DNA of 57,460 bases from a virus (IMGVR_UViG_3300011271_000005:1-57460), one strand, 5' to 3'; counted from the first letter of the stretch, positions 124 to 51,518 are shown. Notes: generated from the letters alone by a model not told the origin. A program made the numbers and translations.

Positions 124-555
124 GTTTTAAATGATCTTGGTTATAATTATTCTGCCCACAATTTACCTCATGATGGATCAGCAGAAACAGTTTCTAATCT
201 TACTCCTGAAAAGCAATTAAGAAAATCTTTTCCTAACGCTACCATTAAAATTGTTGAGCGTCCTACCAAAAAAGCTATAGGAGTCAATGCAGTTAGGAGT
301 CTTTTTCCTCTTTTAAATTTTGATGAAGAAAAGACTTCAAATGGTTGGCAATGTCTGGCAAGATATGCCTATAACGTTGATGAGGATACAGGAGTATTTA
401 GTAAAGAACCTGCACATGATACACCGTGGTCACATGGCGCTGATGCTTTACAGACGATGGCTTTAAGCATCAAATCTGATGAAAAGAAACCTAATCGAGA
501 TAAAGCTAAGGAAAGAGTTAGACAGCATAACAATAATTGGATGGGAGTTATGTAG
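1..555 (+). CDS. terL: Terminase large subunit, C-terminal (nuclease) part; continuation of 56531..57460 across the junction
   Basis: Frame 1 is open from nt 1 to TAG 553-555. The translation TFWDLGHSDKTAIWFVQRAG... is identical to the end of the ORF that runs off the window at 57460. Confidence 0.85.
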   Translation, partial: TFWDLGHSDKTAIWFVQRAGVEFNVINYYEDRLKKIPFYVKVLNDLGYNYSAHNLPHDGSAETVSNLTPEKQLRKSFPNATIKIVERPTKKAIGVNAVRSLFPLLNFDEEKTSNGWQCLARYAYNVDEDTGVFSKEPAHDTPWSHGADALQTMALSIKSDEKKPNRDKAKERVRQHNNNWMGVM

Positions 556-741
556 ATGGCTTATAATCCTGAATTAGTTGAACAATTGTTAGGTAAAGAA
601 GTTGCTAAATTATTAGATGGAACTATTGAGATAGAATCATCTAATGATGAGTATTATGGAAATTTAAAAGCTGGTGATAAGCTTATTTTTAAATTTAAAA
701 ATGATGGTAATATTCTTCCTAGACAATTTAAAATAGGATGA
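556..741 (+). CDS. Hypothetical protein (61 aa)
   Basis: The ATG directly abuts the terL stop (tagATG). The ORF is in the supplied track. Confidence 0.55.
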   Translation: MAYNPELVEQLLGKEVAKLLDGTIEIESSNDEYYGNLKAGDKLIFKFKNDGNILPRQFKIG

Positions 742-745
742 TTAT

Positions 746-904
746 ATGAATGATCAATATTCAATAGTTGCTTTTATCAAATTATTTCATCCAATACTTT
801 ATAAAGGTGATTTCTATATAAAATCTAAAGTATTTGGTGTGTTAAAAGCTCATACAATAGATGAATTAATTTTAAAATATAATGCTTTAATAGGTGAATT
901 ATGA
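746..904 (+). CDS. Hypothetical protein (52 aa)
   Basis: ATG at 746. Its stop overlaps the endolysin start as ATGA at 901-904. It is below the 60-aa cutoff of the ORF track. Confidence 0.4.
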   Translation: MNDQYSIVAFIKLFHPILYKGDFYIKSKVFGVLKAHTIDELILKYNALIGEL

Positions 905-1356
905 GTCAATGGCCGCATGATGACACAGCTTCTAAGATTAAATTCTTTGGTAAACCCGGAACTAATTTGATTCAATTAACTCCACCTTTTCAAATGTATT
1001 ATGATAAGCATCCTATTAAATCATTAACTGTAAATAAAATGATTGCGACTTCTTTATTGAAAGTATTCACAGAAATTCTAGATCAGTGTGGGCATGATCA
1101 GGTTAAGATTGATGCTTTAGGTGTTAGTAATTATGGTGGATGTTATAACAATCGTTCTATTAGAGGTTCTACTAATATTTCTAATCATGCGTTTGGCGCT
1201 GCTATTGACCTTAATCCTGAAAATAATCCGCTTGGTGGCAAGAAAGGTACGATGTCGCCAATAATTATAGCGGCGTTTGATAAAGAAGGTTGGTTTTGGG
1301 GTGGACGATATAAAGGCAGACTCGATCAAATGCACTACGAAGCGGTTAGTAGATAG
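901..1356 (+). CDS. Endolysin, M15-family zinc peptidase (VanY / L-Ala-D-Glu peptidase type)
   Basis: Zn-ligand motifs SNHAFGAAIDLNP (H-x6-D) and DQMHYE are present. No signal peptide is visible. Confidence 0.75.
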   Translation: MSQWPHDDTASKIKFFGKPGTNLIQLTPPFQMYYDKHPIKSLTVNKMIATSLLKVFTEILDQCGHDQVKIDALGVSNYGGCYNNRSIRGSTNISNHAFGAAIDLNPENNPLGGKKGTMSPIIIAAFDKEGWFWGGRYKGRLDQMHYEAVSR

Positions 1357-1363
1357 ATAAATT

Positions 1364-1771
1364 ATGAATAGATTAAAATATCATCGAATGACAGAATTAG
1401 AAGCTTTTGAAGATAGTTTCATTCCAGAACCTAATAGCGGTTGCTGGCTTTGGTTAGGTTCTGTTTTTAAAAAACGTGGTGGTTATGGAATTTTTAATTT
1501 TGGTAAAAATTTAATGCAACGTGCTCATAGAGTATCTTGGCGACTTTATCGCGATCCTTGGCTCGATAGCAAAACTCATATTTTACATACTTGCGATATT
1601 ACGTGTTGTGTTAATCCAGAACATCTATTTGAAGGTAATCAAGCTTTAAATATGTATGATAAATCTATGAAAGGTCGTCAAGGTCACGCTGAAAGTCATC
1701 CTAAATATAAGCATGGTCGCTATGTTGGTGATAAACAAAATCCAAATTATAAACATCTATTAAATGATTGA
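1364..1771 (+). CDS. HNH homing endonuclease (free-standing)
   Basis: The motif string CWLWLGS..GYG...RAHRVSWRLY...HTCD..CVNPEHL is typical of HNH_3 phage endonucleases. Confidence 0.75.
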   Translation: MNRLKYHRMTELEAFEDSFIPEPNSGCWLWLGSVFKKRGGYGIFNFGKNLMQRAHRVSWRLYRDPWLDSKTHILHTCDITCCVNPEHLFEGNQALNMYDKSMKGRQGHAESHPKYKHGRYVGDKQNPNYKHLLND

Positions 1772-1776
1772 AATAA

Positions 1777-4050
1777 ATGCCCGATATTGATAGTTGGCTA
1801 ACAGAAGATGAAAAGATAGTTCAAGAGGCGCAGCGTCGCTTTAAAAGTTGTGAAGAATGGGAATCCACAGCTTGGACTAACTTTGATTATGATTATAAGT
1901 TTGCCAATGGTGACAGCGTCAATATGTACCAATGGGATAATTGGGTTGTTGGTGATCGGTTAGATAACCAACGGCCTTGTTTAACCATTAATAAAACAAT
2001 GCAACATTGTTTGCAAATTATTAATGATGGGAAGCAGAATAAACCCGGTGTTAATATTCGTCCTGTTGGTGAAGATGCTAGTTTCGAAGCTGCTCAAATT
2101 TATGAAGAAGTAATTAGACATATTGAATATTTATCTAATGCTGAAAATGTTTATGATAAGGCTTCTGAATTTCAAGTCATTGGTGGAATTGGTTATTGGC
2201 GTATCATAACTGATTGGGCTAATAAGTCAAAAGGTTTTGATCAAGAGATTTATTTAAGACCTATCAAACATCCAAAATCAGTCAGACTTGATCCAGATAT
2301 CAATGAAACTGATGGTTCTGATGCTAGATTTGGTTACATATTTAATGATGTTCCAAGAGATTTATACAAATCTGATTATCCTGAATTTGAAGATGTTGGT
2401 GGAAGTGTAGTCTTTCAAACGTCTGATGCTGATGGATGGTATACGAAAGATCATATCCGAGTTTGTGAGTATTTTAGAAAGAATCCTAAAAAAGATAAAT
2501 GGATAGAGTTTGTTTTGCCTCAAACTGGCGAAACTATTGATGGTTATTATTCTGAATTAAAAAAAGATAATCCTGATGCAATAGCGCAATTTGAAGAAAT
2601 CAAAAAACAAGAGAAAAAAGTTCCTCTTGCTGATCGTACAGCGCGCGAACGTACAGTATCTAAGAATAATATCGAATGGTATAAGATAGCTGGCAATACC
2701 ATTATTGATCGTAGACCGTGGCTTGGTGAATATATTCCAATTATTCGTATTGTGGGCATAGAAACTATTATCGATGGTCGGTTAGATAGAAAAGGTCATG
2801 TTAGACCATTACTTGATCCGCAGAGGATATATAATGTAAATTCATCAGCTAATGTAGAATTTGGGGCTTTACAAACTAAATCACCATTTAGAGCCGCTGG
2901 TGATGCGATCGAAGGTTATGAAGAATATTATAAGAACGCTAATCTGAATAATTCATCTTATCTTCCTTTTAATGCTTATGATGACGAAGGTCGTTCTTTA
3001 CCACCTCCTGATAGAATGCCAGCACCACAATCATCACCTGCTTATGTGCAACAGATGCAAATTGCACAAAACGAAATGATGATGGTATCCGGGCAATATC
3101 AAGCTCAGATGGGAGAAAATGAAAATGCTAAATCGGGTATTGCAATTAATGCTAGGCAACGTCAAGGTGACAGAGCGACTTATCACTATATTGACGGCCA
3201 AAGCATTGGTATTCGCAATACTGGTAAACAGCTTATTGATCTTATACCTAAAGTTTACACTAAGAAGCGAGTAATGAGGATTGAAGCTAAAGATGGGACA
3301 ATTTTAAATCTTACTATCGATCCTAATCATACTGAAGCTATGACTAAAGTTCCTGTACCGGAACAACAAGACCCTAATGCTTCTGTGCCCACAGAAAAAG
3401 TATTAGACATTATCTTTAATCCTAATATTGGTAATTATACTGTTGTGTCTGATAGCGGTCCTAGCTTTGCTCCTCTCCGTCAAGAAGCATTTAATGCATT
3501 GACTCAGATTGCAGCACAGAATAAAGAGTTTATGAATATTGGTGGTGATCTTCTTTGGAAGGTTGCAGATTTTCCAGAAGCTCAAGAATTGGCTAGGCGT
3601 TGGAGGCGTATCATTCCACCTAATATTACTGGTGATGCTCCTAATCCACAGCTTACACAAGCCATGCATGATGCATCTAATAAGATTGAACAGCAACTAT
3701 CTATTATTACTAAGCAGACTAAGGAATTGGCTGATAAAGATAGGGAAATGGACCTTAAAGAAGCAGAACTTAAATTGCGAGAAAAAGAAGCTATTGCTAG
3801 AGAAAGTCGTGAAGATTATAGGGCTGAAAATCAAAGAATACAAGCGTTGGGTAATTCTGGTCCTGCTATTACACCAGAACAAATACAACCTGTATTGCAA
3901 CAGCTATTAAAGGGAATGCTGTTAGCTGGCGAGCTTGATCCTGTAAAATTAGCAATTGGTATTCGTGATATTGAGCATAATGCTATGACTAGTGATAAAT
4001 TAGCTCAAATGAATAATAGTGGTGGAGATAATAATGCCCCTGCCGCTTGA
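1777..4050 (+). CDS. Portal protein (P22 gp1-like, long C-terminal coiled-coil barrel)
   Basis: 757 aa, located after terL. The N-terminal and core regions resemble P22-type portals. The C-terminal 120 aa is heptad-like (KELADKDREMDLKEAELKLREKEAIARE). Confidence 0.8.
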   Translation: MPDIDSWLTEDEKIVQEAQRRFKSCEEWESTAWTNFDYDYKFANGDSVNMYQWDNWVVGDRLDNQRPCLTINKTMQHCLQIINDGKQNKPGVNIRPVGEDASFEAAQIYEEVIRHIEYLSNAENVYDKASEFQVIGGIGYWRIITDWANKSKGFDQEIYLRPIKHPKSVRLDPDINETDGSDARFGYIFNDVPRDLYKSDYPEFEDVGGSVVFQTSDADGWYTKDHIRVCEYFRKNPKKDKWIEFVLPQTGETIDGYYSELKKDNPDAIAQFEEIKKQEKKVPLADRTARERTVSKNNIEWYKIAGNTIIDRRPWLGEYIPIIRIVGIETIIDGRLDRKGHVRPLLDPQRIYNVNSSANVEFGALQTKSPFRAAGDAIEGYEEYYKNANLNNSSYLPFNAYDDEGRSLPPPDRMPAPQSSPAYVQQMQIAQNEMMMVSGQYQAQMGENENAKSGIAINARQRQGDRATYHYIDGQSIGIRNTGKQLIDLIPKVYTKKRVMRIEAKDGTILNLTIDPNHTEAMTKVPVPEQQDPNASVPTEKVLDIIFNPNIGNYTVVSDSGPSFAPLRQEAFNALTQIAAQNKEFMNIGGDLLWKVADFPEAQELARRWRRIIPPNITGDAPNPQLTQAMHDASNKIEQQLSIITKQTKELADKDREMDLKEAELKLREKEAIARESREDYRAENQRIQALGNSGPAITPEQIQPVLQQLLKGMLLAGELDPVKLAIGIRDIEHNAMTSDKLAQMNNSGGDNNAPAA

Positions 4051-6388
4051 TACTTCATATGATGCTAGTGGTTATGATCCTAATGGGTTGCCATCTGGTT
4101 TACCAATAGATCAACCACGCATTGATGTATATAGGGGGAATGCTTCTGAAGATGCTACAGCGGAACCTAGTATTGCACAGAAAATAAGTGATACATTTCT
4201 AGGTACTCATGGTCATGAGCGCTATCAACTTTGGCCAGAAAGATTAGTGCGTTCTGCTTTATCAGCACCTCATGATGTTTATAATTCTGAAACACCTTTA
4301 ACAAGTCAAGATTTGATTGCACCTGCTTTGGATATGTCGGCTTTAGCTGGGACAGGCGGCCTCGCTGGTGTAGGTGAAAGCGCTGGGGCTGCAACCCTAG
4401 GGGCTGGTCCTTTTCTTCGTCCTGCATTAAAGTATGAGGGCAAGATTTATAAAGCTCCGATGGGTGGTGAGCATATGGATGCTGTGCCTCCTAACTTACG
4501 AAATGAATTTACCAAGCAAGCTATGAGTGGTGAAGATATCAGTAATTTTAATTTTGGTTTTATGAATCATAAAGGACAATTCTTGAATAGAGAAGATGCT
4601 TTGAAATATGCTATTGATCAGGGATTGATTAGTGAACATAATGCTAAGTTTGGTGCTTTGACTAGTACATTAATGGCAGATAGTAGTAAAGAAGGTGCGG
4701 CTATTGGTGCTTTAGAAAAAAGTCAAAGTCCATTTTATAGTGCATTAGAAAAGAATGTTGCTGATATTAATCAAGCTAAAATGACTGGTGATCAGTGGTT
4801 AGGAACATTATCAAATAAGCCGGGTGTCAAGCCTGAAGAAATGGATTGGACAGGATTAAAGGATTATTTGGCTAGTAAAGGTAAAGAAACGGTTAGTAAG
4901 GATGAAGTGCAAGCGCATTTAAATAGTAATAAGGTTGAGTTGGGGGAAGTAAGGAAAGGCGCTAGTGAGTATCATCAACTTCAATATAAACCTACTTTAG
5001 AAAATCATTTGCGAAATTTTGAAGATATTCTTCCAGCTTTTAAATCTGTAGAAGATATAGCATTAGCTAAAAAACATAATATTCATTTTGCTGAAACTGT
5101 TAAAGGTTATTCTGATAAAGAAGTATTTGATACTGTTCAAACAGCTAAAAAACCTTTAAATTTTCCTGAAAATCTATTTCAAAAATATGATACTAGAGCA
5201 GAAGCAGAAACAGCTAGAAAAGCAGCGGGTGCTGAAAATCATTTAGATGTTAATACAGAGCGTACTAATTCAGATATTAAATATCACTCCTATCAACTTC
5301 CCGGTGGTGAGAATTATAAAGAGACTTTATTAATGTTGCCAACTGAAGGTTATAGAGCAGCAAAAGCAAAAGGTATCTCTGGAAGTAATTTAAAAGAATA
5401 TGAAGGGACTGGAACAGACAATTACAAATCCTCTCATTGGGATGACCCAAACATTCTAGCTCATGTTCGTACTAATGAACGTGATGTTAATGGTAAACCA
5501 TCATTACATGTTGAAGAAATACAGAGTGATTGGCATCAACAGGGAAGGGAAAAAGGGTATAAAAATCCTGAAGAATATCAAGCTAAACAGAATGATTATA
5601 AAAAACAATTGCAAGATATTCAAGCTGAAAGAGCTAAATTAGTTGGAAGTGGAAATGCTATTGATAAGGCAAGATATGAAGAATTACATAATAAAGAAAG
5701 CGTAATAACTGATCAGTATAATGCACTACATGATCAAAATGCTTATGGTGTTCCAAACGCACCATTTAAAAAATCATGGCCTGAATTAGCTATGAAAAGA
5801 ACTATTAGACAAGCTGTTGAAGAAGGTAAGGATAGAGTTAGTTGGACACCGGGAGAAGCACAAGCGGCTAGATATGATTTGAGTAAGCAGGTTGACGCAA
5901 TAGATCATATTAAAAATTCTAATGGTACTTATGATTTAATTGTCAAACCTAAAAATGGTGGTCAAATAGAAAAGTTAGGATTAAAAGAGAACGAATTGTC
6001 TGATATTGTGGGTAAAGAAGTAGCTGAAAAAATTATTAAAGGTGAAGGTGAAAAGTCTCCTGCTAGTAAAATGAAAATGTTATCAGGATTAGATTTAAAA
6101 ATTGGTGGTGAAGGCATGAAAGGCTTTTACGATCAAATGTTACCTAATATAGTTGAAAAGATTGGTAAGAAATATGGTGTGAAGGTTAAGGAAGGTGAAA
6201 CATCTACTGCTGATAAAGGAAATGGTGCATTTGAAAATATTCCAACTGTAAATAATTCAAATCCAGAAAAAGGTACTGCTAAAGTCAAATACTTTGATAT
6301 TCCTGAAAAGATGAAACAAGATGTTTTGAAAAAAAGCTTTGCTTTGTTTTCTAATCCATTACCTATACCCACACAGAGGGAAAAATAA
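4034..6388 (+). CDS. Large post-portal protein (784 aa), function unknown; possibly head-associated or injected
   Basis: ATG 4034 follows ggaga and overlaps the portal end by 17 nt. The ORF track offers a GTG start at 4019 instead. It contains HVEEIQSDWHQQG and PFKKSWPELAMKR strings but no motif I can assign. Confidence 0.6.
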   Translation: MPLPLDTSYDASGYDPNGLPSGLPIDQPRIDVYRGNASEDATAEPSIAQKISDTFLGTHGHERYQLWPERLVRSALSAPHDVYNSETPLTSQDLIAPALDMSALAGTGGLAGVGESAGAATLGAGPFLRPALKYEGKIYKAPMGGEHMDAVPPNLRNEFTKQAMSGEDISNFNFGFMNHKGQFLNREDALKYAIDQGLISEHNAKFGALTSTLMADSSKEGAAIGALEKSQSPFYSALEKNVADINQAKMTGDQWLGTLSNKPGVKPEEMDWTGLKDYLASKGKETVSKDEVQAHLNSNKVELGEVRKGASEYHQLQYKPTLENHLRNFEDILPAFKSVEDIALAKKHNIHFAETVKGYSDKEVFDTVQTAKKPLNFPENLFQKYDTRAEAETARKAAGAENHLDVNTERTNSDIKYHSYQLPGGENYKETLLMLPTEGYRAAKAKGISGSNLKEYEGTGTDNYKSSHWDDPNILAHVRTNERDVNGKPSLHVEEIQSDWHQQGREKGYKNPEEYQAKQNDYKKQLQDIQAERAKLVGSGNAIDKARYEELHNKESVITDQYNALHDQNAYGVPNAPFKKSWPELAMKRTIRQAVEEGKDRVSWTPGEAQAARYDLSKQVDAIDHIKNSNGTYDLIVKPKNGGQIEKLGLKENELSDIVGKEVAEKIIKGEGEKSPASKMKMLSGLDLKIGGEGMKGFYDQMLPNIVEKIGKKYGVKVKEGETSTADKGNGAFENIPTVNNSNPEKGTAKVKYFDIPEKMKQDVLKKSFALFSNPLPIPTQREK

Positions 6389-7235: not shown

Positions 7236-7439
7236 ATGAAGTTCAATAATAAAGAAATATCAGAACTAGAAGATTCAATATTACTTGCTGCAAGAGATCA
7301 GTGTGGGCAAATATTGATTGATCGTGTTGAAGCAGGCAAACATGAAAAATTTAAGAAAATGCCTTTCCCACCTCCTAATCCAAAATTTATCGAAATGAAA
7401 AATGAAATTGAAAACGAAATAAAGAAACGGAAATTGTAA
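7236..7439 (+). CDS. Hypothetical protein (67 aa)
   Basis: Track ORF, tightly packed with its neighbours. Confidence 0.5.
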   Translation: MKFNNKEISELEDSILLAARDQCGQILIDRVEAGKHEKFKKMPFPPPNPKFIEMKNEIENEIKKRKL

Positions 7440-8929: not shown

Positions 8930-10174
8930 TTGGCCAATACATATCTCACTATCGACATGATTACGGCAGAGGCTGTCCGCCTTTTCAAAAATAGTAACCT
9001 ATTCGTCATGAATATGGATACTCAATACAGTAATGAGTTTGCTGTAGACGGTGCTAAGATTGGCGATACTCTCCGTATTCGCTTGCCTTCTGACTTCATC
9101 GTTACCAATGGTCCTGCTATGCAGTTGCAGGATAATATTCAACAGTTTACTCGTTTAAGTGTTTCTACTCAATTAAACGTTGCTACGCCTTATACTACTC
9201 ATGAACGTACTATGAGTATTGATAATTGGAATGAACTCACTGGCGCTCCAATGATTAATAACTTAGCCGGTAAGGTTGCTCTTACTGTAATGACTGGTTC
9301 TGAAGGTGGTGTGTGCAACTTCATTAGTAATGTTGATGGTGGTGGTAACATTATCACTCCTGTTTCTGATCAATTCTTACAAGCTAATGCTATCTTAGAT
9401 GATCAAGGAGCATCTATGATGGATAGACGCATTGTTAACCAACCTACTACTGATGCACGTACTACTACCGCATTGCAGGGTTTGCTGAATCCAGTTACGG
9501 AAATCTCTGCTCAATTTCGTTCTGGTATGATGAAGTCAGGACTTGGTTATGATCGTTGGTTCCGCGATCAAACTGTTATTACCCACACTTCAGGTACATA
9601 TAACGGTGCAGCTACTGTAAATGGTGGTAATCAGGTTACTGGTACAGGTGGTGGTAATATCACTGTTAACGCTATTGTCGGTACTTTCAGGAAAGGTGAT
9701 ATTATTACTTTTGGTGGTGTTAATGGTGTTAACCGCACGACTAAGCAATCTCAGGGAACTTTGCGTCAATTTGTTTTAACTGCTGATGTTGCTAATGGTG
9801 CAGTATCGCTTCCTATTTATCCCGGTTTGATTCCTTCTATTACCTTTGTTGCCGGTGGTCCTGATCAGCAATATCAGACTGTCGACGCTTCACCGCTAAA
9901 TGCTGCTACTATTACGATGGTTTCCAAGGCTAGCGAAGTCTATCGTAAGTCGATTGCCTATACTCAGAAGGCAGTCACGATGGCTACCGCTGACCTTGTG
10001 TTGCCCCGTAGGGCAATTGAGGAAGGTGCTAGGGCTAACTATGATGGCATCGCGATGCGTATCATTACCGACTACTTACCATTGTCGGATCAGTTGGCTA
10101 CTCGTGTTGACGTTCTATTCGGATTTTTATATATTCGACCTGAATGGTTATGTGTAGTTGCAGATAAGATCTGA
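8930..10174 (+). CDS. Major capsid protein (P22 coat-protein family)
   Basis: The N-terminus (M)ANTYLTIDMITAEAVRLFKNSNLF...YSNEFAVDGAKIGDTLRIRLP follows the pattern of the P22-coat family. It has a TTG start with an SD and follows the scaffold gene. Confidence 0.8.
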   Translation: MANTYLTIDMITAEAVRLFKNSNLFVMNMDTQYSNEFAVDGAKIGDTLRIRLPSDFIVTNGPAMQLQDNIQQFTRLSVSTQLNVATPYTTHERTMSIDNWNELTGAPMINNLAGKVALTVMTGSEGGVCNFISNVDGGGNIITPVSDQFLQANAILDDQGASMMDRRIVNQPTTDARTTTALQGLLNPVTEISAQFRSGMMKSGLGYDRWFRDQTVITHTSGTYNGAATVNGGNQVTGTGGGNITVNAIVGTFRKGDIITFGGVNGVNRTTKQSQGTLRQFVLTADVANGAVSLPIYPGLIPSITFVAGGPDQQYQTVDASPLNAATITMVSKASEVYRKSIAYTQKAVTMATADLVLPRRAIEEGARANYDGIAMRIITDYLPLSDQLATRVDVLFGFLYIRPEWLCVVADKI

Positions 10175-11610: not shown

Positions 11611-11629
11611 CTAATAAAATGAGATAATT

Positions 11630-12634
11630 GTGGGAATAACTTCTGAAACTGCACGCGGTATATGTACAATGGCCTTAAAAGAGGCTGGTGTACTTGGAGT
11701 TGGCCAAACAGCGTTATCAGAAGATATAAATGATACATTCACATTATTAAACAGAATGATGGCAACTTGGCAGCGTAAAAGATGGGTTGTCCCATCGCTT
11801 TATGATATTGCTGCTATTGTGAATGGATTGAAATCTAATCCTATTGGTCCAGGTCAATTTTGGAATGCGCAACGTCCTGATAAGATACAAGCCGCTTATT
11901 TTATTCAAAATATACCGGGTAGTTTATCTAGTAATGCAAACGCCGTTAGCTTTCCGCTCATACCTATATTTAGTTATGAAAATTATGCTGCTCTTGCTCT
12001 TAAACAATTACCATCATGGCCGCAATATTTCTTTTATGACAATCAATTTCCTGTCGGCAATGTTTATATTTGGCCTATTCCTGATGCAACTTATGAAGTT
12101 CATTTAATTTTAAAAAGTCCTATTGGATTTACAATTGAATTACAAACTGGTATTATTAGTACAGCTGGTCAATTATATACTAATGGTGTTTATGTCGCAG
12201 TCCCTTTAATCAATCTTACTGGCTTTGGATCAGGAGCGACAGCAAATATTACTGTAACTAGTAATAAAGTTACTGGTGTTGTAATTGATAATCCGGGCGA
12301 TGGCTATAAAATAAATGATCAATTAACAGCAACAGCAGCTAGTATCGGTGGTACCGGTAACGGATTTATTTATACTGTGACTGATGTTACAGATGATTTA
12401 AATGCAGTAATGAATATGCCTCCTGAATATGCTGAAGCGATTCATTATAATTTAACACTTCGTGTTATGAGTATGTATAATTATCCTGCTGATCCATTTA
12501 GATCAGCATTAGCTAAAGGTGCTCTTAACACAATACGTGTTGCAAATGCTCAAATACCAACATTATCTATACCAGCAGCATTAAGGAATGTTCGTGGTAG
12601 TAATTTCTATATATTTAATGCGGATGCGAGATAG
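11630..12634 (+). CDS. Head-completion / tail adaptor protein (P22 gp4-like N-terminal domain plus extra C-terminal domain)
   Basis: ALKEAGVLGVGQTALSEDINDTFTLLNRMMATWQ parallels the P22 gp4 N-terminus (ALRKLGV...DAVDDLEAMMAEW). It has a GTG start. Confidence 0.55.
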   Translation: MGITSETARGICTMALKEAGVLGVGQTALSEDINDTFTLLNRMMATWQRKRWVVPSLYDIAAIVNGLKSNPIGPGQFWNAQRPDKIQAAYFIQNIPGSLSSNANAVSFPLIPIFSYENYAALALKQLPSWPQYFFYDNQFPVGNVYIWPIPDATYEVHLILKSPIGFTIELQTGIISTAGQLYTNGVYVAVPLINLTGFGSGATANITVTSNKVTGVVIDNPGDGYKINDQLTATAASIGGTGNGFIYTVTDVTDDLNAVMNMPPEYAEAIHYNLTLRVMSMYNYPADPFRSALAKGALNTIRVANAQIPTLSIPAALRNVRGSNFYIFNADAR

Positions 12635-12645: not shown

Positions 12646-14130
12646 ATGCCTCGTGTTAATTTAGTCGGTTCTGGTTATGCTGGTAAAAGCATTATTGCAA
12701 GTGGACAAGAGACTGTTAACCTTTACGGCGAAGTAAATAGTGCTGATCCTGAAAGTCCTGCTCCTGTAACTTATTATCCTACCCCAGGTACTGATTTATA
12801 CGCTACACCGATTCCTGCAAATTTAAATAAAGTTAGGGCTGAATATAGAACAAGTAGAGGTACAGCTTATTGTGTGATTGGTTCTACTGTTTATATTGTT
12901 ACCGCTATTGGTACATTAATTGTTGTAGGCACAATCGCAAATCTTCCAAGTCAAATATATTTTTCAGATAATGGTCTAGCTGCTGTATTAGTTGATGGTA
13001 CAAATGGTTATGCTATCGATCTTACTACTAATGCGATTGGTCAAATAACCGATCCTAATTTTTATAGTGCTGATTATGTAACACTTTTAGATACTTTTTT
13101 TATATTTAATAGGTCAGGTACGAATCAATTTTTTATTACAGGATCAAATGTTACTTTTACTATGCTTACTACTACCGGAGCATTTGATCCATTAGATATT
13201 GCTGCTAAATCTGGTTTCAGTGATCCTATTGTGGGCATAGTGACCGTTCATCGCGAGCTTGTATTAATTGGACTTCTTACAACTGAAATTTGGATTGGTA
13301 CTGGCGCTGCTGATTTCTTTTTTCAAGAGGTTCAAGGTACTTATGTCAATCATGGTTGTGCTGCTCAGTATTCAATAGCTACACAAGACGTATTAGCATT
13401 TTTCTTACAACAAGATTTACAAGGTAATTGTCTAGTTCTCCAATTACAAGGTTATGATGTTACTGAAATTTCAACACCTCGTATTGTTTCTGAATTTAGA
13501 AAATATGCTACTATTTCTGATGCTATTGGTTTTTGCTTTCAATTAGAAGATCATTCTTATTATGCTATAGTATTTCCAACTGCAAATAAAGGTTGGCTTT
13601 ATGATCTTACAACTAGTGCTAAATTAGGTTTTCCTTTTTGGTCAGAATGGAATTGTACTGATATTAATGGAAATTTAATTAGACCTCGTGCTAATTGTGT
13701 AATGTTTTTTAATAATTTAAATTTAGTTGGTGATTATGAAAATGGAAATATTTTAGAATTAGATATCGATGTTAATACTGATGTAACAACAAATGACGGT
13801 CTATTGCCAATAACCAGAATAAAAACTTTTCCTCATATGCTAGAAAATAATGATCGTGTTACTTATGATCAGTTTCAATGCGATATGGAAGTAGGTACTT
13901 CACAACCTGATGATGATCCACAGATTTCTTTAAGTTGGTCTGATGATAAAGGTAGAACTTATGGAAATCCAGTAATGCAAACATTAGGACAAATAGGAGA
14001 TTATAAAGCTGTTCCATCTTGGAATAGATTAGGAATGGCAAGAGATCGTATTTTTAAATTGAGTTGGTCAAGTAATGTGGTGACTGCTTTAAATGGTGCA
14101 TTCGTTGATCATAGGCCGTCTAGATCATGA
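12646..14130 (+). CDS. Tail hub protein (P22 gp10-like)
   Basis: 494 aa, directly after the gp4-like gene as in P22. Its size and beta-rich composition fit. Confidence 0.5.
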   Translation: MPRVNLVGSGYAGKSIIASGQETVNLYGEVNSADPESPAPVTYYPTPGTDLYATPIPANLNKVRAEYRTSRGTAYCVIGSTVYIVTAIGTLIVVGTIANLPSQIYFSDNGLAAVLVDGTNGYAIDLTTNAIGQITDPNFYSADYVTLLDTFFIFNRSGTNQFFITGSNVTFTMLTTTGAFDPLDIAAKSGFSDPIVGIVTVHRELVLIGLLTTEIWIGTGAADFFFQEVQGTYVNHGCAAQYSIATQDVLAFFLQQDLQGNCLVLQLQGYDVTEISTPRIVSEFRKYATISDAIGFCFQLEDHSYYAIVFPTANKGWLYDLTTSAKLGFPFWSEWNCTDINGNLIRPRANCVMFFNNLNLVGDYENGNILELDIDVNTDVTTNDGLLPITRIKTFPHMLENNDRVTYDQFQCDMEVGTSQPDDDPQISLSWSDDKGRTYGNPVMQTLGQIGDYKAVPSWNRLGMARDRIFKLSWSSNVVTALNGAFVDHRPSRS

Positions 14131-14439: not shown

Positions 14440-14883
14440 ATGGAATTAGCAATATCTAAATTAACTCAACGTGATAAAGTATTTATATTTGAATCATGGA
14501 TGAAACAACAGCCACAACTTGATTTAAAAGTAAATCATTATTTTTCTCATGGTGTTTATGCAAGAGAGCTTTTAATTCCTGCTGATACTATTTTAACTGG
14601 CGAAATACATAAATTTACTAATTTAAACATTCTAATTAAAGGTAAAATTAAAGTTTCTATTGGTGATGAAATAGAAATAATCGAAGCTCCATTTATTATT
14701 GTATCACCAGCAGGAACAAAACGAATTGCCCACACAATTACAGATTGTGTATGGATAACAATTCACGGAACGCATGAAACACATGTTGACAAAATTAAAG
14801 AAATATTCATAGCTGATTCTGAAAAAGATTGGCTAAAGTTTTCAAACATTAATCAATTGGAGTTACCGCTTTGGCCTGGGTAG
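14440..14883 (+). CDS. Cupin-fold-like protein (147 aa)
   Basis: Internal ATG 14440 (MELAISK) follows ggggag. The HYFSHGVYARE...G.IH...NIL.KG string resembles a small beta-barrel (cupin). Confidence 0.45.
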   Translation: MELAISKLTQRDKVFIFESWMKQQPQLDLKVNHYFSHGVYARELLIPADTILTGEIHKFTNLNILIKGKIKVSIGDEIEIIEAPFIIVSPAGTKRIAHTITDCVWITIHGTHETHVDKIKEIFIADSEKDWLKFSNINQLELPLWPG

Positions 14884-27333: not shown

Positions 27334-27334
27334 G

Positions 27335-29099: not shown

Positions 29100-29129
29100 T
29101 AAAAATTCTCCAATAATAGCGAGGTATTA

Positions 29130-29552: not shown

Positions 29553-29567
29553 TACTTTTTCCTTTGT

Positions 29568-30407: not shown

Positions 30408-30417
30408 TATTCACCAT

Positions 30418-30467: not shown

Positions 30468-30496
30468 GAGTTGTTACGTCCTAGTAAATATAATAG

Positions 30497-31090: not shown

Positions 31091-31092
31091 TA

Positions 31093-31457: not shown

Positions 31458-31458
31458 T

Positions 31459-31868: not shown

Positions 31869-31870
31869 TT

Positions 31871-34904: not shown

Positions 34905-34920
34905 TAATGCCCACAATATA

Positions 34921-37224
34921 ATGGGCGGGGCATATATGAATAATTTTGATAATATTCCGATGGAAATGCGGGAGTATAAACAGTGGTGTGTTTGGAAGTA
35001 TATAGATAAAGGTAGACCAAAATTAGATAAGGTTCCATATAAAGCAGATGGATATCCACTGTCGCCAACTGATCCTAGTGATTGGATGACATGGGCTCAG
35101 GTGATGACGCTCGCTCCGATGTATGATGGCATCGGATTTATATTTCATTCGTCATGTCCATTTGCATTTATAGATTTAGATAATGCTGATGGCGATCTTG
35201 ATATGCAGAAGCTTCAAATTAAAATATTTAAAGAATTTGATAGCTATTCTGAATATAGTCCGTCTGGTAAAGGATTGCACATTATTATCAAAGGATCAAT
35301 TCCAGAAGGTAAAAATTACGGTGGAGTAGAACTTTATTCTAATGGTCGTTTTGGTACTATGACTGGCAATGTATTTGCTAATAAACCTATTGTAGAACGT
35401 CATAATCTATTAAATCAATTATACAATCAATTGAATGAAAAATTTGGTCGTCTCAATAACAATTCTAATTTTAATGTTCCTGATATTGAAGAAACTCAAA
35501 CTGATGAAACATTATTAGAATTAGCATTTAAACATAACTCAGAAAAATTTATTCCGTTATCATTAGGAGAATGGCAAGGAAAATATCCTTCACAATCTGA
35601 AGCTGATCAGGCTTATATGAATATTATTGCTGCTTATACTGATAACAGAAATCAAGTTATTCGCATATATTCAAAGTCAAAATTAGCTAAAACTGATAAA
35701 AAGCGTACAACACAGTATTATTTAAATAAAACAGTCAATACAGCTTTCGATCAAAAGATTCCTGATATAGTTTTTAATGGATATGAAAAATATTCTGGTC
35801 CCGTAGCTCAGCGGTCAGAGCCAATCGCTCATAACGGTTTGGTCGCAGGTTCAAATCCTGTCGGGACTACCAACACTCAAGATGCTATAATTCCTCCATT
35901 TGGTTTATTAGGTGAAATAGCTCAATTTATTTATAGCGCAGCACCTAGACAAATACCTGAAATAGCTATTGGGGGAGCTATAGGTTTAATGGCTGGTATT
36001 TGTGGACGTGCATTTAATATTAATGGAACAGGTTTGAATCAATATGTTCTATGTCTAGCAACAACAGGTATGGGAAAAGAAGCAGCGGCTTCAGGTATAG
36101 ATAAAATCATAAATGAAGTTCAAAAGCAGATTCCTGTTGCTTCTGAATTTATTGGACCTAGTGAAATTGCATCAGGACAGGCATTAATAAAATATGTATC
36201 AAATAAATCTCAATCATTTGTTTCTATCATTGGTGAATTTGGTATTAGATTACAAATTATGTCTGACTTACGGGCAAATAGCTCAGAAAGAACATTACGT
36301 AAAGTATTATTACAACTTTATCAAAAATCTGGTCATGATGATGTTCTTAGATCATCAGCTTATGCTGATAAAGAAAAAAATACTAATGATGTCTCAGCAC
36401 CAGCATTTTCAATTCTCGCTGAAAGCACTCCTGAAACTGTTTATGAAACAGCTAATGAAAATATGATAACTGATGGTTTATTACCTAGGTTTATTATTTT
36501 AGAGTATAAAGGTAAGCGTCAATATCTAAATAAAAATCATTACAATATCAGACCATCAAAAAATCTTGTAGATAATATTGCTGATTTGATGGCTAAAGCT
36601 AAAATGCTAATGGCTAAAAGAGAAGTTATTCAGATAAAGTTGGATGAAGAAGTTATTAAATTGTTTACTAATTATGATAAAGAAACAACAGATGATATGA
36701 ATTTAAAAGATGCTCATAAAGCTATTAAAGAATTATGGAACAGAGCCGATTTAAAAGTGCTTAAGCTAGCTGGACTTGTAGCAATAGGTATTAATATGAA
36801 TGATCCTGTTGTAACAAAGTATGAATTTGATTGGGCGCGTAATATTATAGAAAGTGGTATTCATGCTCTTTCAAAGAAGTTTGAAAGCGGTGAAGTTGGC
36901 ATTAATAGTAATGAACTTAAACAAGTAGAAGAATTGACACGCATTCTTAAAGAATATGTGGAAAAAGATTTTCAATATGTTTCTAAATATAAAGCAACAC
37001 AATCTTTACATATTTCTAAAATTATATGCAATACTTATCTTAGTTTAAGATTAACTAAAATGGCTGCATTTAGAAATGATAAAGTTGGTGGGACTAACGC
37101 TTTGAAAAGAACAATACAAATTATGATAGATAACGGTATTCTTAAATTAGCTGGAGGTTTAGATTTTCAAAATAGACATAAAATTACTGGTAAAGCTTAT
37201 TATATAAATATAAATAGCATTTAG
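34921..37224 (+). CDS. Primase-polymerase (AEP/PrimPol N-terminal domain) fused to a P-loop helicase-like C-terminal domain; contains an in-frame tRNA
   Basis: YKQWCVWKY...KVPYKADG...DWMTWAQV...GIGFIF...FIDLDNADGD...GKGLHIII is PrimPol-like. The C-terminal half has LATTGMGKEAA (Walker A-like). The single 767-codon frame is open through 35797..35872. Confidence 0.75.
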   Translation: MGGAYMNNFDNIPMEMREYKQWCVWKYIDKGRPKLDKVPYKADGYPLSPTDPSDWMTWAQVMTLAPMYDGIGFIFHSSCPFAFIDLDNADGDLDMQKLQIKIFKEFDSYSEYSPSGKGLHIIIKGSIPEGKNYGGVELYSNGRFGTMTGNVFANKPIVERHNLLNQLYNQLNEKFGRLNNNSNFNVPDIEETQTDETLLELAFKHNSEKFIPLSLGEWQGKYPSQSEADQAYMNIIAAYTDNRNQVIRIYSKSKLAKTDKKRTTQYYLNKTVNTAFDQKIPDIVFNGYEKYSGPVAQRSEPIAHNGLVAGSNPVGTTNTQDAIIPPFGLLGEIAQFIYSAAPRQIPEIAIGGAIGLMAGICGRAFNINGTGLNQYVLCLATTGMGKEAAASGIDKIINEVQKQIPVASEFIGPSEIASGQALIKYVSNKSQSFVSIIGEFGIRLQIMSDLRANSSERTLRKVLLQLYQKSGHDDVLRSSAYADKEKNTNDVSAPAFSILAESTPETVYETANENMITDGLLPRFIILEYKGKRQYLNKNHYNIRPSKNLVDNIADLMAKAKMLMAKREVIQIKLDEEVIKLFTNYDKETTDDMNLKDAHKAIKELWNRADLKVLKLAGLVAIGINMNDPVVTKYEFDWARNIIESGIHALSKKFESGEVGINSNELKQVEELTRILKEYVEKDFQYVSKYKATQSLHISKIICNTYLSLRLTKMAAFRNDKVGGTNALKRTIQIMIDNGILKLAGGLDFQNRHKITGKAYYININSI
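35797..35872 (+). tRNA. tRNA with CAU anticodon (elongator Met or Ile2 type), CCA encoded
   Basis: Hand-folded cloverleaf. The acceptor stem is ggtcccg/cgggact and the D arm is gctc-agcggtca-gagc. The anticodon arm is aatcg-ctCATaa-cggtt and the T arm is gcagg-ttcaaat-cctgt. The discriminator is A, followed by CCA. There is no 3xGC initiator signature. Confidence 0.85.
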
Positions 37225-37656: not shown

Positions 37657-37857
37657 ATGAATAACCTAATTCACCGTTCATGTTCTAATTGTATTTATTG
37701 GCATGATGTTAAAGTTATTAGAAATGGATTGGTTGAAGCTATATGTGAAAAAGAAGAACTTAAATATACTCAAGGCAGCAATAAGTGTGGGCAATGGAAG
37801 AAGTTGAAATATTATTATAGTATAATATATGATGAAATGGAAAAGGATTATAGATGA
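37657..37857 (+). CDS. Cys-rich small protein (66 aa)
   Basis: Track ORF containing CSNCIYW...C...CGQW. Confidence 0.5.
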   Translation: MNNLIHRSCSNCIYWHDVKVIRNGLVEAICEKEELKYTQGSNKCGQWKKLKYYYSIIYDEMEKDYR

Positions 37858-41782: not shown

Positions 41783-42006
41783 AACTTCGTATTCAAGCAC
41801 AATACATGCAAATTGGTGATATTGTGGGCAGTGGTGAAAAGGTTGTGGATATTGTTAGAGTTAGCATTCATTTTCCTAGTTCTAAAATCATGGTGACGCT
41901 AAACAATGATGTTCGCAATAGAACTAGTTATTGGAATAAATACACAACTGTTAGTGTTGATCGTGAGGATTTGCCGAAAGCTAATAATGCATCATATTAT
42001 AGTTAG
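41779..42006 (+). CDS. Hypothetical protein (75 aa)
   Basis: Track ORF with an ATGA overlap. Confidence 0.5.
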   Translation: MKLRIQAQYMQIGDIVGSGEKVVDIVRVSIHFPSSKIMVTLNNDVRNRTSYWNKYTTVSVDREDLPKANNASYYS

Positions 42007-45544: not shown

Positions 45545-45717
45545 TGTATTTCGTTTGGCTAAAAGGTCTTCATGGCTCAGAGTCTCAATTGTGGGCAGAT
45601 GATTTTATTGATAATCAATTAATTAAAAAAGCTGTGTTCAAGAAAAAGTTATCAGAAGCGGAACAAACATTATCGTTGGATGATTTAGCTATGAAATATG
45701 AGAAGGATAAATCATGA
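45544..45717 (+). CDS. Hypothetical protein (57 aa)
   Basis: The start overlaps the upstream stop (TAATG). It has an ATGA overlap downstream. Confidence 0.4.
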   Translation: MYFVWLKGLHGSESQLWADDFIDNQLIKKAVFKKKLSEAEQTLSLDDLAMKYEKDKS

Positions 45718-45911: not shown

Positions 45912-46089
45912 AGACGGTTATCAAACTATTCGCTTTTGTTGTATATGCAGCAAAGAAGGTATCGATCTAGCCTCGCCTTGCATACCTTACGCAACAAAAT
46001 GTCTTATTTGTGGGCATACTGTTTTCTCGAATGAGCCTTGTAAGAATTGTCAATCGATTAGTAAAAAGTTTAAATTTGCTAAATCATAA
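45886..46089 (+). CDS. Cys-rich zinc-finger-like protein (67 aa)
   Basis: Track ORF containing CCICS...C...CLICGH...CKNC. Confidence 0.45.
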   Translation: MQHQISQYKDGYQTIRFCCICSKEGIDLASPCIPYATKCLICGHTVFSNEPCKNCQSISKKFKFAKS

Positions 46090-46872: not shown

Positions 46873-47061
46873 ATGCCCACATATGATATAAATGGTAATG
46901 AAATTGAACCTCTCACTGCTGAAGAATTTGCTGCTATTCTATGGCCGGGAATGTTTAAACCGGGTTGGCGTGATAGAGAAGTTTGGTTTCAAGAACATTG
47001 TTATTGTTTAAATAAGGCTGAAGAATTATTAAAGATTGTTGAAGTTAGGTATAAAAAGTGA
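46873..47061 (+). CDS. Hypothetical protein (62 aa)
   Basis: Track ORF with SD aggaa. Confidence 0.5.
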   Translation: MPTYDINGNEIEPLTAEEFAAILWPGMFKPGWRDREVWFQEHCYCLNKAEELLKIVEVRYKK

Positions 47062-48240: not shown

Positions 48241-48864
48241 ATGCAATCGCCCAAACCAACCATATTTGATGCTAGAAATGTCGCGCCTTGGGTTGTCAGC
48301 GAGCCTCAACAGCTATCGTCTTTATGGGGTTCAAATGTTCAATCTCAACCATCACCAAAGCCTGATTTTGCTGACAATGACGAGCTTAAGAAAGCATTTG
48401 GAATTGAATTAGGGCGTGGCTTGGATACCTTCAATGCTGGATTGAAAGTATTTGACGAGGTGATGCCTAAAGCATTGTGGGCAAGTGTAAATTGGGCAAA
48501 AGACCCTATAGTTATTGCTTCTCGTGATGCTTATATAATTACGTTAAAAAAAGCAGCTAAACCGCTTGACAAAGAGGAACTTTTAGCAGAGGTTTTGGAA
48601 CAATCGCGATTCGCACCTGAATTTAAAGATAAAGCTTCACTTTTAAAATTATATTCTGATATTGCTGGTTACACTGGTAAGATTGCGATAGATGCTTCCA
48701 CTAATACAACAAACAATACTCAAAATAACAATCTTACTAAAATAGTTTTAGTTAAAGGTTCACAAGAGCCAGTTTCGAATAACAATAAAGCTCCTGATAT
48801 GAATAATCAATCAAAAATACAAAATAGCTTGCCCAATCTTAAGTTGGTTGGAGGCTTACGGTAG
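48241..48864 (+). CDS. Terminase small subunit candidate
   Basis: 207 aa. The pattern ...WAKDPIVIASRDAYI...LDKEELLAEVLEQSR...KDKASLLKLYSDIAGYTGK is typical of TerS central/oligomerisation regions. It is the first gene after the early terminator. Confidence 0.45.
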   Translation: MQSPKPTIFDARNVAPWVVSEPQQLSSLWGSNVQSQPSPKPDFADNDELKKAFGIELGRGLDTFNAGLKVFDEVMPKALWASVNWAKDPIVIASRDAYIITLKKAAKPLDKEELLAEVLEQSRFAPEFKDKASLLKLYSDIAGYTGKIAIDASTNTTNNTQNNNLTKIVLVKGSQEPVSNNNKAPDMNNQSKIQNSLPNLKLVGGLR

Positions 48865-50385: not shown

Positions 50386-50416
50386 GATTTAATCTGAAAC
50401 AGAAAGGATTAAACCT

Positions 50417-50839
50417 ATGCCCTTAACTCTTCCGAGTAAACAAGTCAGACAATACACCACTTCTAAACAGTTAATTGGCGGTGATGATTTTAACGGAATC
50501 GTCGCTCAATTAAATTCATCAGCGGTTGGTATCACTGCTGGTGTTGGTGGTGGTTCTGCTAATGCTGTTGCACTAGCTAATGCTTTTAATACTATATCAA
50601 CGGTCGCTAGTGCCAATGATAGTGTAAAACTTCCAAAAGGTTTTGCTGGTTTGGAAGTCAGTATTGCCAATCAAGCCGCAGCTAACTCACTTCAAGTATT
50701 TACTTCTAGTAAAGGCCTTATCAATAATACTGATGGTGTCGCTACTGGAGTAGCTTTAGCTGCTAGTCAAACATCATATACATTATATTCGTGTTTTAGA
50801 ATAGATGCTACTAATGGTGAAATTTGGTTATCTAAGTAA
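50417..50839 (+). CDS. Cassette protein B (140 aa), no signal peptide
   Basis: SD aaagga. The protein is Ala/Gly/Ser-rich. A terminator follows. Confidence 0.6.
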   Translation: MPLTLPSKQVRQYTTSKQLIGGDDFNGIVAQLNSSAVGITAGVGGGSANAVALANAFNTISTVASANDSVKLPKGFAGLEVSIANQAAANSLQVFTSSKGLINNTDGVATGVALAASQTSYTLYSCFRIDATNGEIWLSK

Positions 50840-50853
50840 TTACTCCCCAGACT

Positions 50854-50884
50854 TGCCCCGGTGCAGAAGCCGGGGCATCTTTTT
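50854..50884 (+). terminator. Rho-independent terminator inside the cassette
   Basis: tgccccgg / ccggggca (8-bp stem, 8-nt loop) followed by TCTTTTT. It lies inside the N-terminal extension of track ORF 50805..51335, which argues against that extension. Confidence 0.75.
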
Positions 50885-50897
50885 AGGAATAAGTTTT

Positions 50898-51335
50898 ATG
50901 AAGAAATTATTAGTACATATTGTAGCATTATTTTTATTACTTTGCCCACAATTAGCTTTAGCTGCTAATGCATTTTTAGCTGATTCTAAAATTAAAATTA
51001 CATCTATTATTGTAGCTAATAACACGACTGCTGTTGTAATTAGCACTACACAATCAACTGTTTATTCAGTAGATGCTTTTAACAATGCTGGTGCGATTGC
51101 TTATGTAAAATTATATAACGCATCAACTGGTACTTGTGGTACTGGAACTCCGCAAGCTCGTTATATGATTCCATTTGGGGCTAGTTCCTCTGGTGGCGGA
51201 TTTAATGTTTCAAATATTAACGGCGATGCTTATGCTAATGGAATTGTGATGTGTATTACTACTGGTATAGCAGATACTGATATTGTTGCTCCGAGCTCTA
51301 ATGCTTATATTGTCAATATTCATTATAAGAATTAA
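50898..51335 (+). CDS. Exported protein C (145 aa)
   Basis: SD agga. Signal peptide MKKLLVHIVALFLLLCPQLALA/AN. It shares a TG(T/A)TCG(T/A)GT-containing segment with 51530..52216. Confidence 0.65.
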   Translation: MKKLLVHIVALFLLLCPQLALAANAFLADSKIKITSIIVANNTTAVVISTTQSTVYSVDAFNNAGAIAYVKLYNASTGTCGTGTPQARYMIPFGASSSGGGFNVSNINGDAYANGIVMCITTGIADTDIVAPSSNAYIVNIHYKN

Positions 51336-51518
51336 ATGAAAACCATTTTAACAGCCATTCTTATCATTAGTGTGGGCATAGTGACTGCTTACGCTGGTGG
51401 TTTTTCTATGCTTCATGTTGGCTCTGCTGATGGTAATGGTGGCGGAGGTGGTGGTTGTTCTAACCAACTTGATTTTTCACAAGCTTGTAATTCTCAGTAT
51501 ATACCGATTATTCATTAA
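51336..51518 (+). CDS. Exported Gly-rich peptide D (60 aa)
   Basis: The ATG abuts the upstream stop. Signal peptide MKTILTAILIISVGIVTAYA/GG. The roughly 40-aa mature part has GNGGGGGGC and two Cys. Confidence 0.5.
   Translation: MKTILTAILIISVGIVTAYAGGFSMLHVGSADGNGGGGGGCSNQLDFSQACNSQYIPIIH

Follow-up and report, generated by a model that had tools for sequence, protein, structure and literature searches.

The DNA analysed here, a 57,460-nt stretch of a viral contig (IMGVR_UViG_3300011271_000005:1-57460; hereafter the window), carries the non-palindromic octamer TGTGGGCA on both strands in large excess over chance. We consider it rather probable that TGTGGGCA is the cognate recognition and initiation word of the phage's own primase-helicase. 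This protein is, to judge from its sequence, an archaeo-eukaryotic primase (AEP) of the NrS-1/pRN1 type with a helix-bundle domain (HBD), fused to a DUF3987 helicase. Sequence comparisons indicate that the word, or a clade-specific variant of it, is common to hundreds of phages of unrelated hosts and to small chromosomal islands. The window represents an entire genome of 57,337 bp, closed into a circle (positions 1-123 and 57338-57460 form an exact 123-bp overlap). The phage is a P22-like podovirus and has genes for portal, coat and tail fibre. A near-identity search with the window returned no close relative among cultured phages, and an exact-protein look-up of the portal protein gave no record.

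A first-pass annotation of the same DNA had reported 28 copies of the octamer, 16 on the plus and 12 on the minus strand, where about one would be expected by chance. Exact matching reproduced this count, and 27 of the 28 coordinates proved correct; the copy that had been placed at 34000 starts at 34001. The excess is also real: dinucleotide shuffles contained on average 1.27 copies (sd 1.02, maximum 4), and the order-3 Markov expectation is 0.86. Even a synonymous-codon shuffle within each gene, the kind of codon-aware null that the annotation had proposed as a check and one that preserves every protein sequence, gave only 7.1 ± 1.6 copies (maximum 12 in 500 trials) and is thus clearly surpassed. 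Thirteen copies lie in sense and 11 in antisense orientation within genes, four are intergenic, all three codon phases are represented, and two copies coincide with start codons in the form of ATGCCCACA (21889 and 46873). As codon phases, strands and non-coding DNA are all used, the view that it is the DNA word, and not a peptide, that is under selection holds. Nor is the octamer a piece of a longer dispersed repeat, which the annotation had named as an outcome that would undo its proposal, because no 14-mer recurs in the window apart from the terminal overlap of the contig. Its further remark that the GC-rich segments are free of the word stands for exact copies, but with marginal significance only (P = 0.044), and such an island does contain one relaxed copy, TGTGGGTA at 23521.

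The word is sharply defined. Each single-mismatch variant occurs only 0-6 times, 28 of the 30 GTGGGC hexamers are part of TGTGGGCA, and two-mismatch variants are fewer than in the shuffles (300 versus 364). When position 7 is left free, the relaxed form TGTGGGNA is found 37 times versus 3.0 expected, with C at this position in 28 sites, T in six and A in three. The longer string TAATTGTGGGCA occurs five times. Exact copies are spaced at about one per 2 kb overall and one per 3.6-4.8 kb on each strand, the closest pairs being 45 and 237 bp apart. Across relatives some positions are conserved and others have turned over, which fits selection for density and not for specific locations. The exact copies of TGTGGGCA and the relaxed copies are distributed in the window as follows:

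153..160, minus strand: exact copy, intergenic
1087..1094, plus strand: exact copy
2751..2758, plus strand: exact copy, portal gene, sense
3386..3393, minus strand: exact copy, portal gene, antisense
7302..7309, plus strand: exact copy
13230..13237, plus strand: exact copy, position kept in seven related loci
14727..14734, minus strand: exact copy
17344..17351, minus strand: exact copy
17389..17396, minus strand: exact copy
17591..17598, plus strand: exact copy
19219..19226, plus strand: exact copy, tail-fibre gene
21890..21897, minus strand: exact copy, on start codon (ATGCCCACA)
25271..25278, plus strand: exact copy, DNA polymerase gene, antisense
26037..26044, minus strand: exact copy, DNA polymerase gene, sense
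26640..26647, plus strand: exact copy
28860..28867, minus strand: exact copy, SF2 helicase gene
31789..31796, minus strand: exact copy
34001..34008, plus strand: exact copy
34908..34915, minus strand: exact copy, 13 nt upstream of the primase start codon
37549..37556, plus strand: exact copy, gap downstream of the primase gene
37786..37793, plus strand: exact copy, downstream of the primase gene
41823..41830, plus strand: exact copy
45590..45597, plus strand: exact copy, intergenic
46009..46016, plus strand: exact copy
46874..46881, minus strand: exact copy, on start codon (ATGCCCACA)
48476..48483, plus strand: exact copy, position kept in several relatives
50943..50950, minus strand: exact copy
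51371..51378, plus strand: exact copy
6007..6014, plus strand: relaxed copy TGTGGGTA
6366..6373, minus strand: relaxed copy TGTGGGTA
9580..9587, minus strand: relaxed copy TGTGGGTA
11629..11636, plus strand: relaxed copy TGTGGGAA
23521..23528, minus strand: relaxed copy TGTGGGTA, within a GC-rich island
24111..24118, minus strand: relaxed copy TGTGGGTA
27682..27689, plus strand: relaxed copy TGTGGGAA
31689..31696, plus strand: relaxed copy TGTGGGTA
57219..57226, plus strand: relaxed copy TGTGGGAA

The gene of the proposed reader and the genes that usually accompany it are located at:

34921..37224, plus strand: primase-helicase gene (767 aa), proposed reader of the word
24139..33260, minus strand: remainder of the replication module, the usual company of the primase in phages (DNA polymerase, processivity factor, SF2 helicase, nucleoside deoxyribosyltransferase-like protein, Cas4-domain exonuclease, SSB, Sak4 and DUF7173); context, not the proposed reader

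The primase-helicase falls into the PHROG family phrog_3022, 'DNA primase' (E 5e-203), and matches the Pfam families DUF3987 and NrS1-1_pol-like_HBD. The HBD score of the window protein (26.2 bits) is slightly below the cut-off of 27.9, and a homologue in a chromosomal island (L275, see below) scores 38 bits. In a profile comparison with the PDB, residues 11-272 match the NrS-1 primase N300 (6A9W, 6K9A, 7RR3; E 2e-40), and the match covers the HBD. Invariant residues comprise the catalytic D85xD87 and H120 as well as Y267 of the HBD, which aligns with NrS-1 Y261. Mutation of Y261 inactivates the HBD of the NrS-1 enzyme and leaves only weak primase activity (PMC8718748). The NrS-1 primase uses two initiation sites, 5'-TTTGGTTA-3' and the more efficient 5'-GTG(G/A)-3', and the primer starts at the first base 5' of the recognition site; pRN1 ORF904 reads GTG through its HBD, and in both systems it is this domain that confers sequence-specific recognition of the template (PMC8718748). 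The core recognised by these characterised family members, GTGG, is contained in TGTGGGCA (T-GTGG-GCA). Thus, the putative reader domain is homologous to enzymes with proven GTG-type template specificity. In a collection of cultured phages, 480 records match the primase-helicase, 274 of them over at least 80% of its length.

The octamer is by no means confined to the window. Among 69 IMG/VR contigs with a related portal (54-91% identity, plus two outliers at 44-46%), many have TGTGGGCA as their top-enriched 8-mer, a few have TGTGGGTA, and some lack an obvious word. Cultured siphoviruses share the primase-containing replication module, and TGTGGGCA is likewise the top-enriched 8-mer in Pseudomonas phage 73 (19 copies, 0.26 expected), E. 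coli phage Shy (20 copies, 0.20 expected), Rhodobacter phage RcTitan (17 copies, 0.29 expected) and Acinetobacter phage D0 (24 copies, 1.1 expected), as well as in dozens of IMG/VR contigs of 32-57% GC. Wherever a full-length primase homologue is encoded (32-66% identity; loci at 35-57% GC), TGTGGGCA ranks among the most enriched 8-mers, and in nearly all of these loci it takes first place; loci sharing only the distant N-terminal primase domain are without it. In 54 of the loci in which one word clearly dominates, this word is TGTGGGCA (GC 32-57%), at a constant density of about 3-8 per 10 kb. The enrichment is thus independent of host and GC content. In 50 kb sampled from E. coli K-12, which Shy infects, there is no TGTGGGCA versus 14 copies of Chi (GCTGGTGG). 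Since phages of unrelated hosts share the identical word and the host DNA sampled is free of it, the word is a property of the mobile replication module and not of the host. Judged from these comparisons, the group that shares the primase is very large and includes Septimatrevirus, Lokivirus, Titanvirus, Iggyvirus, Queuovirinae and the P22-like podovirus of the window.

More distant primases (23-34% identity) are accompanied by sister words at a density equal to that of TGTGGGCA. Achromobacter phage ART has TGTGGTCA (37 copies in 48 kb sampled, 1.8 expected), Pseudomonas phage Pa-X has TGTGGTTA (39 copies in 50 kb sampled, 1.4 expected), and Vibrio phage GH32 uses TGTGGYCA, i.e. TGTGGCCA plus TGTGGTCA (37 copies, 3.3 expected). 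All sister words retain TGTGG, and TGTGGTTA is only one base off the NrS-1 site TTTGGTTA. The same word types were recovered repeatedly in a scan of IMG/VR anchored on the SF2 helicase. Loci were merged explicitly by contig and not by shared 40-mers, which gave chimeric groups. Four close relatives of the window encode the primase (36-44% identity in all four) and are without exact TGTGGGCA. These portal relatives were considered as counter-examples but do not stand as such, as the relaxed A-(T/G)-TGTGGG-N-A (TGTGGGNA) is 5-9 fold enriched in them (P 2e-4 to 1.5e-8) with the same flanks. Other repeated strings in relatives, ATGCGACG, CCGGAGCC, GCTGGCCC, AGTACCAG and the pair CAGTTAAG/CTCCTTTA, are tandem repeats, coding repeats or promoter-like elements confined to one strand, and have nothing to do with the octamer. 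The last two are found in an early-gene-like region of a 95-kb contig (L088, 14000-22500), where they are strand-specific (17 and 18 copies, respectively) and probably represent phage promoter or ribosome-binding elements.

Which gene of the module does the word follow? The module is present as a block across phages, and even the 95-kb phage ART has all of it; therefore, presence or absence of genes among phages cannot single out the reader. As a rough correlation, we compared genomes with GCA-type and T(C/T)A-type words by the identity of each protein to its counterpart in the window, expressed as the area under the curve (AUC). The AUC is high for the primase (0.99), the processivity factor (0.98), DUF7173 (1.0, n = 4) and Sak4 (0.96), and low for the polymerase (0.58), the Cas4 exonuclease (0.65) and the SF2 helicase (0.76). 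Of the parts of the primase, it is the HBD region that distinguishes the two word types best (AUC 0.975).

The islands are more telling. In the chromosome of Pseudotabrizicola sp. 4114 (L275, 7800-15400), an island of about 7.6 kb with 56-58% GC, versus 65-70% in its flanks, encodes a tyrosine integrase and a 781-aa protein composed of AEP, NrS-1-type HBD and DUF3987. Nine copies of TGTGGGCA lie within it, and the host DNA on its flanks, 13 kb in all, has none (P = 1e-4). The sole open reading frame (ORF) of the window with a detectable homologue at this locus is the primase, and the alignment extends over residues 7-280 only (41% identity). Islands in Paracoccaceae and Terriglobales (L273, L276) show the same pattern. 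Together with a fourth (L335), these islands are small, low in GC and satellite-like, with a tyrosine integrase and an AEP-HBD-DUF3987 primase; the density of the word within the islands reaches up to 12 per 10 kb, and it is absent from the flanks. Other genes of the replication module were not detected in the word-bearing islands at the tblastn level. The word strictly co-occurs with the primase, down to these minimal integrase-plus-primase islands, and because they keep the word while sharing only the N-terminus of the primase, the word follows the primase, specifically its AEP/HBD part.

With this, the general idea of the first-pass annotation that the octamer is the site of a dedicated protein is borne out. 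The protein that always accompanies the word is the primase-helicase, a candidate that the annotation had not taken into account. Its comparison with Chi and DNA-uptake sequences has to be abandoned, since the same octamer is found in phages that infect Pseudomonas, Escherichia, Acinetobacter and Rhodobacter, and the sampled host DNA has no copy of it. The helix-turn-helix (HTH) and ParB-like proteins that it had suggested for electrophoretic mobility shift assays are likewise poor candidates, being poorly conserved where the identical word occurs. The ParB-like protein (42772-43584) was rejected as a reader, for it has no detectable homologue in phage 73, Shy, RcTitan or D0, all of which have the identical word. 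The small ORF upstream of the primase gene (34695-34904) was rejected as well: among those four phages it is detectable in Shy only, and it was found in none of the islands.

Flanks and spacing carry additional information. In the window, the flanks are informative on the 5' side only: position -3 is A or T in 25 of the 28 sites, position -2 is A in 21, and position -1 is T in 18 and G in eight (26 of 28 T/G), so that the fuller word reads (T/A)-A-(T/G)-TGTGGG-C-A. When 860 unique sites are pooled, the 5' flank alone is informative (A at -2 in 56%, T at -1 in 41%, positions -3 and -4 rich in T), and positions +1 to +8 are flat. Such a one-sided flank is expected if the recognition element itself is not copied and the primer starts immediately on its 5' side. 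To assess regularity, the coefficient of variation (CV) of gaps on the same strand was compared with 20,000 random placements. None of these was as even as the plus strand of Shy (CV 0.17), the minus strand of D0 (0.38) or the plus strand of GH32 (0.44); the plus strands of Pa-X (0.46, P = 1e-4), RcTitan (0.44, P = 0.006) and the window (0.61, P = 0.03) are regular as well. In the genomes tested, copies on one strand are about 3-5 kb apart. Most genes have the denser and more regular strand as their sense strand (66:42 in five pooled genomes, P = 0.026), and this bias fits lagging-strand templates with forks moving co-directionally with transcription. Taken together, the one-sided flanks and the regularity per strand favour a strand-specific, single-strand reading of the word.

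In the mechanism that we propose, the HBD would bind the word on the single-stranded template after the duplex has been unwound, and the catalytic domain would then start a primer on the bases just 5' of the word. With copies seeded on both strands at roughly the spacing of Okazaki fragments, the phage replisome could prime its lagging strand, and restart, anywhere on its own DNA; host DNA would offer the word at chance frequency only. That the primase itself and not a recruited partner reads the word, that it reads single-stranded DNA, and that the outcome is primer initiation, we infer from the homology and the site distribution. A bolder version would be that the word is a long primase 'address' of 8-10 nt, whose TGTGG-NN-A variants co-evolve with the HBD and which, written at Okazaki-length intervals, restricts priming to self DNA. 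To this we give somewhat less than even chances. If true, self-restricted priming would amount to self/non-self discrimination at the level of replication, and newly imported DNA would have to gain the word over time.

The sites of the characterised family members are the closest parallel. In common with those of NrS-1 and pRN1, the window word has a homologous putative AEP+HBD reader with intact catalytic motifs and a conserved critical HBD tyrosine, it contains a GTG(G/A) core in the form of GTGG, and word and primase occur together across hosts and genome architectures; moreover, its flank information is on the 5' side, where NrS-1 starts the primer. Unlike the NrS-1 sites, it is a strict 8-10-mer that is enriched 20-70 fold genome-wide, regularly spaced and varied between clades, and the phage has a separate DNA polymerase. 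In the genome of Nitratiruptor phage NrS-1 (L132) the in vitro sites TTTGGTTA, present once only, and GTGG are not markedly enriched. This genome contains 11 copies of GTGTAAC in both orientations at 17062-17371, directly downstream of the primase gene. The cluster is likely to be the origin, with iterons that contain the GTG recognised in vitro. Other elements with AEP primases have 8-mers of their own, namely GTAACAGG (L282/L103), TGTAATCG (L286/L108), TAAGGACG (L309/L114), GTAACYGA (L104/L105) and GTACAGTG (L298), each laid out as 6-12 inverted iterons that occupy about 300 bp on the downstream side of the primase gene. It may thus be a general rule that every clade of primases possesses its own cognate word. 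A 16-kb locus (L165, IMG/VR 3300033070_000105) carries a palindromic word, GTTTAAAC, at 10 dispersed positions, about 25 times the expected number.

Primases of other families provide a further comparison. T7 gp4, with its 5'-GTC-3' core, and other DnaG/Toprim primases prime the lagging strand from a short template signal that is partly uncopied, with the primer starting on its 5' side. The proposed template word, with a primer start on the 5' side, would be of this kind, but the signals of T7 gp4 and DnaG comprise 3-5 nt and belong to an unrelated enzyme family; being short and common by chance, they need no genome-wide enrichment. Octamer-size words specific to an element's replication protein are known from the P4 alpha ori/crr repeats (TGTTCACC) and from the Rep-ori systems of Staphylococcus aureus pathogenicity islands (SaPI) and phage-inducible chromosomal islands (PICI). 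The window word resembles these, and the iterons of the pRN1 origin, in its size and in its proposed specificity for the element's own replication protein. It differs from the origin iterons of P4, SaPI and NrS-1-like elements in that its copies are spread over 57 kb and both strands and not over a few hundred bp. The pRN1 origin is located downstream of orf904 (pRN1 replicon paper).

An alternative is that the word acts as a dispersed double-stranded iteron, at which the primase-helicase is loaded as the replicative helicase, creating many weak origins. The layout in related elements, NrS-1 included, where 6-12 copies of the element's own word stand in inverted sets in about 300 bp directly downstream of the primase gene, is classic origin architecture and speaks for it. 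The window itself has copies at 37549 and 37786 just downstream of the primase gene, and the non-coding gap directly after this gene (37335-37430) contains a pyrimidine (poly-C) run, cccccctcccccctccccctcccccccc, about 30 nt long and with an AT-rich stretch behind it; this could be a replication origin or an element that forms a structure. In addition, some 30 related loci have a minus-strand member of the word family in the 600 nt or so that precede the primase gene, most commonly at offsets of -13 to -20 or -190 to -230, which hints at a site for autoregulation or initiation. All of these, including the window's own minus-strand copy at 34908, may be origin-related features. Yet in the window the copies do not cluster beside the primase gene, and an origin needs no 28 or so evenly spaced copies. 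Furthermore, the type of word tracks the N-terminal AEP/HBD part (the L275 protein, alignable over residues 7-280 only, goes with the identical word), the flank information is one-sided, and the spacing is more regular on each strand than on the strands combined. We therefore regard the iteron model as unlikely, although it is the strongest competitor of the priming model.

The other explanations fare worse. A Chi-like signal, read by a helicase-nuclease (either the phage SF2 helicase with the Cas4-domain exonuclease or the host RecBCD/AddAB) and serving to protect phage DNA or to stimulate recombination, seems highly improbable to us. The octamer does belong to the same class of non-palindromic 8-12-mers, over-represented genome-wide irrespective of coding frame, as Chi and the DNA uptake sequences (DUS/USS); it occurs on both strands with a modest strand bias, and Cas4-domain exonuclease, SF2 helicase and Sak4 annealase are encoded adjacently. 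However, Chi and DUS/USS are properties of a host species, whereas the window word is identical in phages whose hosts differ in their recombination machinery. It is not over-represented in the E. coli chromosome sample, which is rich in true Chi, and it lacks a strong orientation bias: the two orientations are interleaved in the window (16:12) without any end-directed pattern, and the five-genome pool is at about 60:40. The poor AUC values of helicase and Cas4 argue against a Chi-like role for both, and there are word-bearing islands without a detectable homologue of either helicase or nuclease. Only slightly less improbable is a site for some other activity encoded near the primase, such as the small upstream ORF, a ParB-like protein, a base-modifying enzyme or a nicking enzyme of the T5 or tf/LUZ24 type. 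A small ORF always precedes the primase gene, with an HTH annotation in phage 73; a deoxyribosyltransferase-like gene belongs to the module, and some relatives have Que/DpdA; and the nick consensus sequences of other phages are similar in length to the octamer. Against this, the small ORF is not detectably conserved in phage 73, RcTitan, D0 and the islands, all with the identical word, the ParB-like and modification genes are missing from most word-bearing phages, and it is not evident why selection should enrich a modification site. Finally, a host-derived signal (an uptake sequence or a word of the host genome), a codon or compositional artefact, or a dispersed mobile repeat is effectively refuted. 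A density of about one per 2 kb and the two orientations are reminiscent of uptake sequences, but the count far exceeds the codon-aware null, no longer repeat is shared around the sites, at least four host genera have phages enriched in the word, the enrichment spans 32-57% GC, and the host DNA sampled lacks it. Naturally competent hosts carry uptake sequences at about one per kb; the flanks of L275 and L273 and the E. coli sample contain no copy of the octamer, the host of the window phage not being among them.

Several points weigh against the priming model, too. No orientation switch that would mark a bidirectional origin was seen, and the strand bias is merely about 60:40. Processivity factor, Sak4 and DUF7173 correlate with the word type as well as the primase does, so that the primase is singled out by a handful of chromosomal islands, in which the other genes are absent at the tblastn level only. 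A strict requirement for 8-10 nt would be an extrapolation, because the NrS-1 enzyme is reported to be flexible and GTG alone suffices in vitro. Since the phage encodes a separate DNA polymerase, its primase may differ in behaviour from the NrS-1 primase-polymerase. Finally, the enriched words of other primase clades, including NrS-1, occur as clustered iterons beside the gene, a layout that speaks for the recognition of an origin and not for dispersed priming.

A template word for an AEP primase is of a known kind; a strict, genome-wide, regularly spaced and clade-specific 8-10-mer appears to be new. A full-text literature search for the octamer, its complement and a sister word, with subscription journals largely outside its reach, found no description of the feature; the matches were primer sequences and one incidental entry in a table of ribosome-binding sites, and the literature found on the AEP primase family deals with in vitro sites only. 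If correct, our proposal would reveal the in vivo specificity of a widespread, biochemically unstudied phage primase-helicase, and it would explain an apparently unreported genome-wide word in Pseudomonas phage 73 and in the E. coli Lokivirus phages. It would also mean that the site required by a primase can be long enough to make seeding of the genome necessary. Shy, which infects E. coli K-12, offers a testable system. Apart from that, the word could serve as a sequence marker for the replication module and for DNA recently imported into such genomes, and the sister words as natural specificity variants for engineering sequence-addressed DNA priming.

Some other features of the window genome deserve mention. 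Three segments (20200-21400, 23400-24050 and 52300-56500) have a GC content of 49-57% versus a background of 35%; they include a 1102-aa ORF (53151-56459) without a Pfam match as well as the C-terminal part of the tail-fibre gene, and are probably recent imports. A GIY-YIG homing-endonuclease gene is located at 33253-33792, and several GIY-YIG paralogues, five in L018, are inserted variously among the structural genes of the relatives L018, L028 and L043. The nucleoside deoxyribosyltransferase-like gene of the replication module (phrog_12607, 29130-29552) is replaced in relatives by genes for MazG, dCMP deaminase or Que/DpdA. Because of these genes, DNA base modification is possible in the window phage and its relatives.

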